Of a stretch of 64,000 nt of DNA, positions 10,622 through 52,679 are shown piece by piece (position 1 is the stretch's first letter; each line of letters opens with the position of its first letter). The stretch is taken from the NCBI GenBank assembly GCA_964016885.1, contig OZ024749.1, positions 23,932,001 to 23,996,000 of the forward strand. The letters run 5' to 3'. The position numbers were made by a program, and so were the translations under genes. Origin of the DNA: Eledone cirrhosa. Lineage: Eukaryota. The notes under the pieces were generated by a model that saw only the letters and a list, made by a program, of their open reading frames with translations, had not been told where the DNA came from and did no database searches.

Positions 10622-11805
10622 TAGGAACGAGTAGGACCCCGACGGCTGAGCTTAAGCCGTTTCGACGGCTAATTCTGGACTAAATGAAAATGTTTATCCT
10701 GGTATTTGAATAGCCGAGCTTCTCAGGGGGTAATTCCATATATGGTAAAAGTGATTGTCACAAGGATTGGTCAAATGTTTGTTGTTGAGACAATAATTCT
10801 ATCATGGCAATTTGTGGAGGGAAGGGGTAGCTGTACCTGCCAGTAGAAGAAAGAGGGAGAGGGGTGGAATAAACCCAGTCGTGCGTTGATAGTGCCAACT
10901 ACAGCTGGGCAGGAGGTCAAAGAAGATACTAAGGGGGGGGGGGGGGTCGAAACAATAATTAAAACAATATGGGGTAAATATATAGAAAAATACCGGGAGT
11001 GTTAAAAAACAATTAAGTGTAAAGAAAAAAACAATTTCTGGTTACTATAACCTAAGGACAGCTATCAAGTCTCTCACTGGTACTGCTAGACTAAAGAAAG
11101 GTTTACTAGGTGGGACGGAATTATAATGAGACCCTTTTAAGAGGTATAAGCAAACAACCGAATATATCTTACGGTGACGGGTCAACAAGTGTGGGGCGGG
11201 GGGCAAAATACTAAAGAAACTACCACGAAATAATAAATCAGAGTCCCGAGACCAGTACGAAATAAAGGTTTCTACCCCAGGCACAAGACCAGCAACCACC
11301 CAGTGCAAAAAAAATAAACTAATACGAAATAATAATTCAGAATCCCGAAAAAGAATACTAATACTATCTCTAAGGGTGCCGCAACGCTACAAACATTCTA
11401 GTGCAAACTACATAAATGCTCGTATGAAGTATATGTAAAATTTGATACGGGAAATTAATTCAGAATTCCCCCCCCACAATACCCCCCCCCCCTAGTATCT
11501 TCTTTGATCTCCTGCCAAGCCGTAGTTGGCACTATCGACGCACGACTAAGTTTCTTCCACCCCCTCTCCCTATTTCTTCTACTGGCAGGTTCAGCTACCC
11601 CTTCCCTCCACAAATTGCCATGATAGAATGATTATGTCTCAACAACAAACTTTAGACCAATCCTTGTGGAAATCACTTTTACCATATATGGAATTACCCC
11701 CTGAGAAACTCGGCTATTCAAATATCCGGATAAAAATTATCATTTAGTCCAGAATTAGCCGTCGAAACGGCTTGAGCTCAGCCGTCAGGGTCCTACTCGT
11801 TCCTA
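10622..11805. mobile_element. Fold-back element with ~325-bp inverted arms, each carrying a variant hammerhead fold
   Basis: 10622-10946 is the reverse complement of 11482-11805 (taggaacgagtaggac... / ...gtcctactcgttccta). HHR-like folds lie at 10636-10731 (-) and 11696-11791 (+). Confidence 0.85.
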
Positions 11806-14419
11806 TTACCCACTCTACTACCCTAAATATTGAGTACATTGGTGCGTTATGGTCTACCTGATTCCTTACCACATTTCCTTCGTTATATATATATATATAT
11901 ATATATATATATATATATATATATATATATATATACATTATATGTATATATATATATATATATATATATATAACGAAGGAAATGTGGTAAGGAACCAGGT
12001 GGACCATAACCAGTATTTATATTGGTTTCATTCATTGGCCACAAGGGACGACATATACAGTAGACGGCGACAGTGGGGGCTTTACATAAAAATCGAGTAA
12101 AAAAAAATAGGCAAACAATAACAATAAACAAGAAAAATATAACAATGAACATTCCCCAATAGAGGGAATAACCAGCCAGATTTGATTCATGTACCCCACC
12201 AATCCTGAACCACCCGACGCTTTGAGTGAACCCGGGAAGGGCACTCCTCTCCCCTTCAAACTCTCCAGCCTACAGGCGCCTGATAAGAGTAGGTCCACTC
12301 ACACGGGCCTATCTTGCCACATTCACCCACTTTTCAGCAAATGTACTGGAGAGCAGCACTTCTCTCTCCAGCCACAGCTTCCTTATCAAGTGAAATTTGA
12401 AAAGCTTGATGACGGATTGGCCGAAGAGAAAATTGTCAGTCTTCAGTCCTTTCAACCTGGTCCACCAAGCAGCATTAGTAATAGTAATAGGAGTAACGGT
12501 GATGGGTTAGTATTAGTAAACCTGGTGTTGTTGCTGTTGTAAGTATTAAGCACCAGGTCATATTTAACTGGGTATACGTCTGGTTCAATTTCTAAACGTG
12601 ACAATCTTCTGCACATTTCCAGAAAATATCTTTCTGTTCGGGTGATATTGGTGATTTGTCCAATTTCTTTAACATGTACAGTTGTAATAGGCGAGAAGTT
12701 AGTCTACTCCGCCTTGCAGGTGAAACAGAAATTGCAGCTTTCTCATTAAGTGAGAAGTAATTCTCCTGACATGTATCATTACGTGGGTTGGTATATATGT
12801 GAAATGACAACGGATTTGAAAGGAATAGTTGAAGGTTTTCTGGTTGAGGTTTATATAGCTTTACAGATATGAATTGCCTAAGGATTTACCATGTATACAT
12901 GATAACATAGATACACTTACACCAAGAGTTACACATGCGTAGACTCACTAACCATGAACAGTTAATAATTGATTAAAATGACACAGCGTTGCGTTTTAGC
13001 CCACTATACATACATGCAGGCCCAAATTCACATATGGAAACACACAGATATGTATGTATATATATGTTCCGGAGAGATTGTTTTGGTAAAAACAGGAGCA
13101 AGCGGGAGAAAGCTCTCAACATTCATAGTTTTTAGTTACGATGAATATTTTTATAAAAATATCAAAAATAAAAATGCTGATGTTACATAAATCGTTTAAT
13201 CATTATAATTATGTCCGCGTTTCTCCGTGAAATCGAGAAGTCTTTCATGTATTTGTTGTTGTTATGAGACCGGTATCCTCAGATGAAACCCGATTTAGTG
13301 ATATGCTGCCGGCACGAAAAAGCACACGCCTTCTGTTCGTGTGTCCAGCAGACATATGAGTTCTTGAAAGGATCTCCCAGCCATCGTGTTTGCTGGAGTA
13401 AGGTGCAATCAACGTGTCAATTAGTGAAATCAGGATTCACGCAACCCCCACGGAGTTGAAGTCCTAAATCAGCAGAGAGGTAACCTCACATATATATATA
13501 TATGTGTGTATATGTATATATATATATCTATATATATTAATATTTATATATATGTCTATATATATATATATGTGTATGTCTATATATATATATGTATATG
13601 TCTATATATGTATGTATATATATATATGTATATGTCTTTGTATCTCTATTTCCCTCTCTCTCTATCTCTATCTCTCTCTCTCTCTCTCTCTATATATATA
13701 TATATATATATATATATATATATATTCATCGCCCTGCTTTAAATGTAAATTTAAAGCAGTTGGTTGTGCAGCAATGTTAATTTGATTAACTTTAGTGATT
13801 TTACAATGTGCGGTGTATTCTAGCGAGTTCCAAGAATCTCTGATGGAATAACTTGAGATATTCGATGCGGCGTTCTGCGCTCTGAACTCAACTGCAGCCA
13901 AGGTCAATTTTACCTTCCTCCCCTTTGAGGCTCATCAAAAGCGTACCATTCGGGACTGAGGTCGATTCATCCGTTATATTTCCGTCACACGTCGCATCTC
14001 TCTCTCTCTCGCTCTACCCTCTCTCTCTCACTCCAACCTCTCTCTCGCTCCTTTTCTCAATCTCTCTCCAACTCTCTCTCTCTCCCGCTCTCTATCTCTC
14101 TCTCTCTCTTTCTCTCTGTCAGTCTCTCTGTCTCTCTCTCTCTCTCTCTCTCTGACAGATATAACCTGCATTTAGATCTTGAGAGAAAGTCCCTCTCCAG
14201 TTTTAATGTGCTCAAGACACGTTGTATGTCATGACAGCTACCCTGTTACAATACCATCCGGACTTAGGAGACCTTCCAGAAATATATACAATGCTTTTAA
14301 GAGATCAACATGAATAGTTTGAAAAAAACACTAAATAGATCATGGAGAGGAAAAGCTTGCACATGAAATTGTGATGTAAGTGGCAGAACATCCAGCAGAC
14401 ATGTGAAGCCTTAATTTAA

Positions 14420-14612
14420 TTGTTTCTACTTTTGGCACACGGCCAGTAATTATCCCAGTGCATTACTGGTAATTTATTTTATCGATCCCGCCCGAAAGGA
14501 TGAAAGGCAAATATAACCTCGGTGGGATTTGAAATCAGCTCGTAAAGGTGTGTATCTCTATGCTGCAAAGCATGGCATTCGACCCTCTATCTATACTGCC
14601 AATCCACTGCCT
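14420..14612 (-). mobile_element. tRNA-derived SINE
   Basis: Full-length match to the family (ttgtttctacttttggcacac...aaggatgaaaggcaaa...ctgccaatccactgcc). Confidence 0.8.
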
Positions 14613-15765
14613 TAATATAATTAATTTGTGAGAAAATACAATCGGCGTGTGACTAAGCAGACATTTTGAACGACGTCGACGTTTCATCTGAATCGATTGT
14701 AAGCAGTGTAATACTACTTGATTTCATGCATAAGTACGGCGTCTTGCCGAAGCTATGGGGAATTATACATGACCAAGAAGCTACTCACTGATATTACACT
14801 CTGACTACAGTATTTGCGAAACCAACTTTTCAATCATTCGGTTACGCTGAGTCCAGGGGTACAGAACTCAGGTCTAGAAAGCGCCATTCAGTAAACAATG
14901 GTTTATGCCATGACTATGATTGGATATGGCAGACTAATGTGCCAATCTTTAGGGTAGAAACCGGGACAAAGAGATTGATAATCAAGTGAATGTGACAATA
15001 TATCTTCACACTCTTGAAGGGAGCCCAGAGAGTAATATTAACAGAAATTGCAGTTAATAGACTTTCCATGGAAGAAACACGATTCTATAGACACACACAC
15101 ACACACACACACACACACACACACACACACACACACACACACACACACACATATGTATATATATATGTATATATATATATGTATATATATACACATACAC
15201 ACACACACACACACATATATATATATATATATATATATATATATATATATATATATATATATATATATATATATATATATATATATGTATATATACATAT
15301 ATATGCATACATATACACGTGTTTGTTCGTCTTTATGATTAGGTGTATGAGCGATTCTATGTATATGTGTAGAGGTGTAGTTCAGCTTAACACTTTGATT
15401 ATTCAAGAAGCGAGAGTTGTGAGAGCTAACATCAAAATGAATTTGTGAGCATTTATCAAAAAATATATATATCAAAGGATGCTTACTCTCTAAGGTATTA
15501 AGCTCTTAAATACACACACACACACATATATGTATATATATATATATATATATATATACATATATATATACACACACTCACACACGTACACGCACACGCA
15601 CAGCACGCACACATATTTATTTATATATATAAACACACATGAAATAATATATTTATATATACATATATTCATTTATATATATATATATATATATATATAT
15701 ATATATATATATATATATATATGTGTATAAACAAACATGAAAATATATATTTATATATACAGATA

Positions 15766-51885: not shown

Positions 51886-52105
51886 ATATATATATATATA
51901 TATATATATATACATATATATATTCATCTCTATCTATCTATCTATCTCTCTCTCTCTCTATATATATATATATATATATATATATATATATATATAAATG
52001 TTTATAACTGGAGTAAATGCTCAATGATATTAACTATCCAGTGAATTTCCAACCGATAAGTTATGATTTTCATGGGTACGTTTCTATTTATAAAACAAAC
52101 CTTGT

Positions 52106-52168
52106 ATTTTATCTGATGAAAGCGCACCAATGTTGTCTTGGTTGCTCTTGAAATATATATAATAAAAT
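52106..52168 (+). ncRNA. Type I hammerhead ribozyme, relative of 35771-35833, in a (TA)n-bounded fragment (~51995-52212)
   Basis: attttat-CTGATGA-aag.gcacca...tggttgc.ctt-GAAA-tatata-TA-ataaaat. Confidence 0.82.
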
Positions 52169-52679
52169 AAATATGGCTTTATAAATATAGTTTCCATTTA
52201 TCTAATATCATTGTGTATATATATATATATATATATATATATATATATATATATATATATTCATCTATATATTCATATATATTCATGTATATATATATAA
52301 TATATATATATATATCCATCCTCACTGGGAGGCATTGTCACGGAAAAACCTTACACATGCGTCTTTACTGATATTCATATTTATATTCATACATATATAT
52401 ATATATATATATATATATATATATATATATATATGCACAGACATACAGTGACGCAATCACTATACAAGACCACACACACACACACCCACACACTCTCTAT
52501 CTATCTATCAATGACTCTCACACACACACAGTTACACACAGGCCCATACCCAAACAAAGAGATATTTCATTATTTCACTGTTGATATATACCAATATCTT
52601 TCACATGTATGACCCCTATTCACTTCAAATAAAAGACTTAGTCAGATGAAGGGATGTGTTATGTACCTAATATTAATAG

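Follow-up and report, generated by a model that had tools for sequence, protein, structure and literature searches.

How a palindrome comes to carry the same ribozyme, pointing outward, in both of its arms is the question raised by a 64,000-nucleotide stretch of the Eledone cirrhosa genome (contig OZ024749.1, positions 23,932,001 to 23,996,000), in which seven two-armed insertions have a hammerhead ribozyme fold in each arm. The whole stretch, positions 1-64,000, is referred to here as the window, and L followed by a number denotes other loci of the 3.0-Gb genome. We put the probability at roughly 80% that these insertions were made by the reverse transcriptase (RT) and GIY-YIG endonuclease of a Penelope-like element (PLE), in a doubly primed reaction on one RNA template that has two fixed start sites.

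One of the seven insertions (family A) is a truncated PLE 3' end, three are arrays of 310-528-bp retrozyme units, two (families B and E) derive from 1.1-2.8-kb units without an open reading frame (ORF), and one belongs to family D. The 310-, 466- and 528-bp units qualify as non-LTR retrozymes (LTR, long terminal repeat), that is, tandem ORF-less units of a few hundred bases with one Type I hammerhead each; family A, which has an ORF, and families B and E, whose units are longer, do not. No PLE ORF was found in the 310-, 466- or 528-bp units or in those of B or E. The original prediction took the elements to be non-autonomous, which is not supported for all of them: family A comes from the 3' end of a Hydra-clade PLE that has an ORF.

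Hammerheads were searched with a Type I descriptor (core CUGANGA...GAAA...UH plus stems I-III). The window had 15 perfect-core motifs, against a mean of 0.03 and a maximum of 1 in 60 dinucleotide shuffles; a wider descriptor, which allowed an irregular stem II, gave 19 perfect-core matches. Rfam revealed no hammerhead in the window at the gathering score, the 466-bp family alone scoring (HH9, 38.9 bits against 52), and the Rfam matches obtained were mostly miRNA-like and lay on (TA)n or palindromes. Of the two motif searches that had been proposed, the descriptor gave counts far above shuffles, while the covariance models stayed below the gathering score throughout. The fold was spread over about 12 families. 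At least ten unrelated families had been claimed; the number stands, but 35778 and 52113 were 82% identical by self-BLAST, and many families share a tail hairpin. Each arm was also said to have a CTGATGA-type fold or a single-base variant of it. A fold was present in each, although the left-arm motifs at 16424 (UUGAUGA) and 35428 (CUAAUGA, GAAC) are damaged and family A has the variant core CUGAGAA at 10726 and 11701. Among the first 100 matches of family A, position 3 was U in 63 and C in 37, together with A8, giving mostly U3-A8 cores and a C3/A8 subfamily; this U3/C3 swap supports family A as a real hammerhead. The U3-A8 variant is known from PMC4209133, and core variants are described in PMC3088659 as rare, with some retaining activity. 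U3-A8 cores were also observed in further families (L052, L055, L067 and L120), and eight occurred in a random genome sample, one of which looks spurious, against none in shuffles. Stem III was palindromic in nearly all descriptor matches of the window, a feature that PMC4209133 ties to dimeric cleavage, which suggests that these RNAs may cleave as dimers. In monomers, folding placed the hammerhead 1-9 kcal/mol above the minimum-energy fold.

Self-BLAST and the descriptor confirmed all seven inverted pairs; as had been noted, left arms have the motif on the minus strand and right arms have it on the plus strand. Some boundaries had to be moved: family A ends at 11883 rather than 11805, family B near 25822 rather than 25678, and the left arm of the insertion at 51359 continues to 50487. 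The same orientation was found genome-wide. In a sample of 76 random 10-kb stretches (760 kb), 68 perfect-core motifs (0.2 in shuffles) formed 22 sequence clusters and fell in 30 of the 76 stretches, a density of about 90 per Mb (95% interval 69-113), or about 2.7x10^5 per genome; this estimate exceeds the 120,000 retrozyme copies given for axolotl in PMC7229834. The nearest (TA)n lay downstream of 47 motifs and upstream of 14. Where neighbours of one family lay on opposite strands (14 pairs), 13 pairs were directed outward, the sole inward pair being 85% identical and 5.3 kb apart. Exact-pattern matches numbered 14,817 for the Hydra-clade PLE of the window, 4,033 for the 310-bp family, 3,509 for D, 1,491 for the 466-bp family, 539 for E and 455 for A. 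Polarity and loci were tallied in six families, with the first 100 exact matches taken for each, and strand switches within 6 kb were outward in 101 cases and inward in 3; among the matches listed, two-armed loci accounted for 9 of 10 in the 310-bp family and 18 of 28 in the 466-bp family. Tested against 50:50, polarity was thus far from even in both the random stretches and the six families.

Most families with enough copies had two fixed 3' ends, one short and one long, 36-165 nt apart. Relative to the cleavage site, they were located at about +130/+166 in the 310-bp family, +228/+302 in the 466-bp family, +19/+97 in A, about +55/+200 in B and about +54/+131 in E. One short and one long end were paired in 58 of 61 two-armed insertions (P = 3e-14 versus independent choice): 9/9 in the 310-bp family, 11/11 in the 466-bp family, 13/14 in A, 12/12 in B, 9/11 random pairs and 4/4 others. 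The tally was made by eye and omitted L128, L149, L155, L067 and L069, where an end was interrupted or lay outside the coverage, three window insertions whose ends were ambiguous (16311, 35332 and 51359), and every copy of a tRNA-like element described below. The centres differed from copy to copy, with an overlap of 0-5 nt (16 once) or a filler of 2-14 nt. An inverted 5'-truncated copy, a tail at one end and variable 5' ends, all of which were observed, are traits of insertions by endonuclease-positive (EN+) PLEs, and polarity and end geometry together support the view that these insertions arose by PLE-type retrotransposition, with priming on either side of a (TA)n target. The 310-bp right arm of the window had raised the idea that arms start at the ribozyme cleavage site; this was rejected, since only 2 of 43 arms started within 5 nt of it (1.2 expected). 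Arms ran through intact ribozyme sites.

What many families share near the short end is a hairpin, RYTC...GARY, occurring as ACTC/GAGT, GCTC/GAGC or GTTC/GAAC. In 10 of 15 families, against 0.76 expected from shuffles, it begins no more than 14 nt from the short end, and it is present in all three ORF-bearing Hydra-type PLEs; it is missed by one base in the 310-bp family, the 466-bp family, the window copy of E and one U3-A8 family, and is absent from the PLE at 28628. This hairpin of about 30 nt is a candidate recognition signal. The ribozyme itself may matter less. The PLE family with 14,817 exact matches had a CAGAAGA (U4A) core in all 100 listed. A hammerhead-less element with a tRNA-like cloverleaf (34346-34416, minus strand) lies at 34201-34462, with its long end on the left and its short end on the right; it has a second copy at 62223-62440 and forms a 270-bp tandem unit elsewhere. 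The cloverleaf of this unit scored 42-46 bits against the Rfam tRNA model (gathering score 29) and was called Ser-GGA, and no hammerhead was found in the unit even with two core mismatches allowed. By sequence, both window copies and L156 were head-to-head in (TA)n, each having a short end and a long one; of 1,333 candidates, 40 were scored, and in these the alignment coordinates allowed ten pairs to be read. Since the cloverleaf is followed by a T-run, it is improbable that the full unit is simply transcribed by RNA polymerase III; it could be a passenger of PLEs resembling a short interspersed nuclear element (SINE), perhaps cut to unit length by tRNA-processing enzymes. A chimera was also observed in L047 (7044-7720), in which each arm of the tRNA-like element has the final ~90 nt of family A as its cap and the two ends are short. 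The abundance of the CAGAAGA family and the like behaviour of the hammerhead-less unit suggest that integration can do without the ribozyme. With arms that do not begin at the cleavage site and a unit that lacks the hammerhead altogether, the ribozyme looks more like a strand marker than the cause.

These observations can be arranged in the following model. The PLE RT/GIY-YIG protein would bind RNA just downstream of the hammerhead. Both strands of a (TA)n tract would be cut and both target 3' ends would act as primers, as a published in vitro result leads us to infer, one end at the upstream short site and the other at the downstream long site of what is probably the same template. Each RT would run independently to a variable stop, and the complementary DNA (cDNA) 3' ends would be joined with a few-base overlap or filler. 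The product would be a head-to-head insertion with the RNA 3' ends outward and the tail on one side only. Templates would comprise the PLE's own mRNA (A), long ORF-less units (B and E) and short retrozyme RNAs; a retrozyme monomer circle, copied repeatedly from both sites, may give arrays of independent length in each arm. The hammerhead probably makes the monomers or circles and would not be needed for integration.

The nature of the template was approached through variants in 16 arrays. Variants present in at least two copies within a locus numbered 40, with 47 more as singletons. Of the 40, 33 were present in every covering copy of both arms, one was in both copies of the sole arm covering it, and six were in some copies only. 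Many of the 33 were subfamily variants; others were locus-private, for instance two in L151, across 7-8 units, and one in L126, across 4. The simplest reading would be a ligated monomer copied by rolling circle from both sites; rolling-circle copying was supposed for one cDNA in PMC7229834. The 310- and 466-nt units were strongly self-paired when folded as circles (z -4.3 and -9.8, respectively; 40 shuffles). Runs X1 and X2 contained the 310-nt unit as one closed 340-nt contig, which was discarded as evidence because a tandem DNA repeat would have the same shape. The 310-bp unit was also near-identical in runs under four organism labels, perhaps through contamination, relabelling or species sharing.

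Double priming with a separate RNA for each arm, or on an uncleaved linear multimer instead of a circle, is an alternative that we consider unlikely. The six variants present in some copies only are compatible with it, uncleaved RNA was the main in vitro substrate in PMC11167929, and sister transcripts of one locus would share variants too. However, separate RNAs alone leave the strict short-long pairing unexplained, the locus-private variants of L151 extend across as many as eight units in the two arms, and the 310- and 466-nt units are strongly self-paired as circles.

Self-priming, proposed for head-to-head PLE palindromes (PMC3846280), fared worse; in it, a single cDNA or an antisense template would fold back on itself, so that the first arm serves as template for the second. 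Since the A/B tail is absent from the short arm, this route would need the short arm to lie inside the long arm. Among 23 family A and B insertions, this was the case in 11; in the other 12 neither arm held the other (9 clean cases, two with partial tandems and one with a 16-nt difference), leaving sequence private to each arm. The arms of L018, L038 and the window insertion at 34512-34635 had no overlap at all. Two independent cDNAs would be expected to give such a near-even split, and non-nested arms contradict self-priming as a general route. Small palindromic or templated fillers at some junctions and variants common to both arms would agree with fold-back; it could be viable only for a subset with symmetric centres, and we consider it quite improbable as the general explanation. 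Non-nested arms fit the in vitro reaction of green anole Poseidon (PMC11167929), in which both strands were cut and extended at AT-rich DNA, two internal starts bracketed the tail, and the ribozyme was unneeded for insertion. Neither Poseidon start showed a strand preference, whereas the genomic data here imply coordinated ends.

It is very improbable that the palindromes are miniature inverted-repeat transposable elements (MITEs) with captured hammerheads, or satellites that expanded or inverted locally after a one-armed insertion. Inverted repeats within TA-rich targets would agree with this. In family D, the spacing of outward cores peaks at 161-199 bp (13 of 21) and could reflect a fixed short element, although it also suggests that synthesis stops, or arms are joined, by preference ~85 nt upstream of the core. 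Local amplification of arrays has been proposed in a preprint (10.64898/2026.07.22.740005), which invokes unequal crossover. However, the tail sets one end apart from the other, copies vary in centre and length, family A continues into an RT ORF, and the unit numbers of the two arms differ while both ends stay fixed. Symmetric identical termini, excision footprints and a matching transposase were not seen. The original prediction had named fixed termini with the inverted repeats and target-site duplications of a DNA transposon as a refutation; each family does have fixed termini, in two places, yet they are asymmetric. Its claim that these MITE-like palindromes are retrotransposition products is supported; they have neither symmetric terminal inverted repeats nor constant length. 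Assembly or library fold-back artefacts are scarcely credible: young arms were 99-100% identical by self-BLAST, but older arms differed by up to ~8%, artefacts would not stop at two fixed family-specific sites, and in contigs of public run X3, which may come from the source sample, the 310-bp unit met TA at these very two sites (loose ends 27127 and 27158).

Several points weigh against double priming on a single template. L051 and L064 have equal ends and the L047 chimera has two short ones, and the insertions at 16311, 35332 and 51359, in the window itself, could not be scored for pairing. The (TA)n flanks hide any target-site duplication, and none was readable. The six partial variants, three of them in the window's own 466-bp array, would agree with a template that is a multimer or with conversion at a later time; shared variants could also stem from gene conversion or from sister RNAs made at one source locus. 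The hairpin enrichment is overstated, because the motif was chosen on the same sequences that were tested, and the one-base mismatch in the 310- and 466-bp families makes any partner enzyme for them tentative. We give even odds to a fuller version of the double-priming model: that one PLE ribonucleoprotein uses two obligatory sites of a single RNA, often a circle, to prime both break ends, that retrozyme "satellites" are written whole in one rolling-circle event, that the short tail structure and not the ribozyme is recognised, and that unrelated RNAs ride along, including the 270-nt tRNA-like unit.

The partner enzyme for most families is probably a Hydra-clade PLE. A motif scan of window positions 46600-49800, L047, L154 and L069 revealed the traits that PMC8557442 gives for this clade (C-terminal endonuclease, DKT, RW motif, CxCx5C linker and (TA)n targets), except that L047 lacks the third linker Cys and the endonuclease motif of L069 was missed by the pattern. 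PMC8557442 calls canonical hammerheads universal in the Hydra clade; here, only the L069 family had one in its Hydra-type terminal repeats, family A having U3-A8 or C3/A8 cores and the window PLE CAGAAGA. A PLE probe matched 22 of the 76 random stretches, several of them only through a short N-terminal piece overlapping the terminal repeat. The window carries three PLE ORF remnants. The broken Hydra-clade PLE at 46650-49763 (minus strand) has RLRWR, DKT, CxCx5C, a GIY-YIG-like motif at its C terminus, direct terminal repeats, the CAGAAGA hammerhead fold at 49630 and an inverted arm at 50373-50492. Its assignment to Naiad was rejected on account of the DKT motif and of the endonuclease's position at the C terminus. 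The insertion at 34512-34635 is a two-armed stub of this PLE, made of a short-end arm and a tail-only arm without common sequence. Another PLE is represented by a 3' fragment at 28250-29191 (minus strand), an ORF with a GIY-YIG-like motif followed by a degenerate hammerhead; its family has an intact CUGAAGA core elsewhere. A PLE fragment with RT and GIY-YIG lies at 20543-21872 (minus strand).

The window copy of family A consists of two pieces of its 3' region. The left arm (10622-11465, minus strand) is at the short site with its core at 10726, and the right arm (11482-11883, plus strand) is at the long site with its core at 11701 and a tail at 11806-11883 that has the ACTC...GAGT hairpin. 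Family A flanks a 794-codon open frame (RT and GIY-YIG) in L047 and repeats at 3.6 kb in L154, the full unit. Two inverted repeats centred on (TA)n tracts were observed, at 11841-12015, where two family A tails face each other across the tract, and at 29031-29785. The 528-bp-unit retrozyme is a two-armed stub at 16311-16988, with an intact hammerhead at 16858 (plus) and the damaged one at 16424 (minus); its unit is tandem in L065. An array of the C16 family next to a PLE ORF in L065 was rejected as the terminal repeat of that PLE, being a mere neighbour. The 466-bp array has a left arm (22661-24211, minus strand) of 3.3 units with three hammerheads and a long end ~+294 to +302 from the cleavage site, and a right arm (24214-25194, plus strand) of 2.1 units with two hammerheads and a short end at +233. 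Family B (25264-25822) is the terminal repeat of a ~2.8-kb ORF-less unit, with hammerheads at 25369 (minus) and 25573 (plus); its left arm is short, and its right arm is long with a 145-nt tail (25678-25822). The 310-bp array has a left arm (26039-26677, minus strand) of 2.1 units with a short end at +128 and a right arm (26677-27775, plus strand) of 3.5 units with a long end at +167.

Family D is inserted at 35332-35897, with a hammerhead at 35778 (plus) and the damaged one at 35428 (minus), and has a one-armed relative at 52085-52210. L153 was rejected as its unit; that locus contains two separate D insertions. Family E (50487-51885) is the terminal repeat of a ~1.1-kb ORF-less unit; its right arm is at the long site, and its left arm continues as element body, cut off near 50487. 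One-armed hammerhead families lie at 33843-33957 (plus strand; 3' end at (TA)n 34147) and 38739-38806 (plus strand; 3' end at (TA)n 39091). A one-armed copy of an abundant hammerhead family is at 31189-31400 (minus strand; core 31373, stem I imperfect), and a tail piece of it is also present at 15977-16114.

Other repeats of the window lack the hammerhead. A ~410-bp family (18347-18760, 22008-22407 and 40537-40930) has a fixed 3' end beside TA- or TGTA-type repeats and no perfect-core hammerhead; it had 13 matches in the loci examined. Short palindromes without a hammerhead inside occur at 36195-36363 and 38560-38739, the latter directly upstream of the hammerhead at 38739. On the minus strand, 52659-55706 is a ~1,000-codon open frame of 78-bp repeats, rich in Thr and Ala, which is mucin-like or a coding-looking minisatellite. 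An abundant SINE-like family is present at 1-176, 2065-2210, 14410-14621, 43640-44065, 46238-46360, 49754-49950, 55802-56181 and 61352-61905, and is also inserted in family E copies (L152 and L155).

The head-to-head pattern has already been described for PLEs (PMC3846280, PMC8557442 and PMC4209133). EN+ PLE insertions (PMC3846280; PMC8557442, Fig. 2) likewise have head-to-head arms, 5' truncation, partial tandems, a tail at one end and microsatellite targets. Their tails are one-sided and 30-40 bp long, whereas tails here are 36-165 nt, arms are often non-nested, most templates are ORF-less, and the pairing of ends was counted. In both papers the palindromes are explained by self-priming, and the tail by resolution through the endonuclease. 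Dual minimal hammerheads of Schistosoma (PMC4209133) are also on opposite strands, 100-700 bp apart, with the U3-A8 variant; orientation, ends and mechanism are analysed here and not in that account of the pairs. Metazoan non-LTR retrozymes (PMC7229834; 10.64898/2026.07.22.740005) share tandem ORF-less units, Type I hammerheads and a palindromic stem III. Described there as tandem repeats, they are tied to PLEs by co-occurrence and by homology to the PLE terminal repeats (pLTRs), and PLE mobilisation and tandem cDNA from circles are proposed; in the passages compared, two-armed arrays with two fixed ends and shared variants are not reported. The literature searched, which excluded supplements, Repbase and most subscription journals, contained no two-armed retrozyme arrays, short-long rule, non-nested arms, tail hairpin or tRNA-like PLE passenger. 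Ribozymes are not mentioned in the passages compared of a recent octopus repeat annotation (PMC13282606).

The feature is thus genome-wide and of a known kind, and what is added is a mechanistic constraint and the passengers. The origin of the PLE inverted repeats and tail and the enzyme that mobilises retrozymes are called open in the PLE and retrozyme papers cited, in the parts compared; end geometry, non-nested arms and shared variants make both questions specifically testable. Because the genome has about 2.7x10^5 hammerheads, many of the palindromes that pipelines would call MITEs or miRNA hairpins are probably retrotransposition products.

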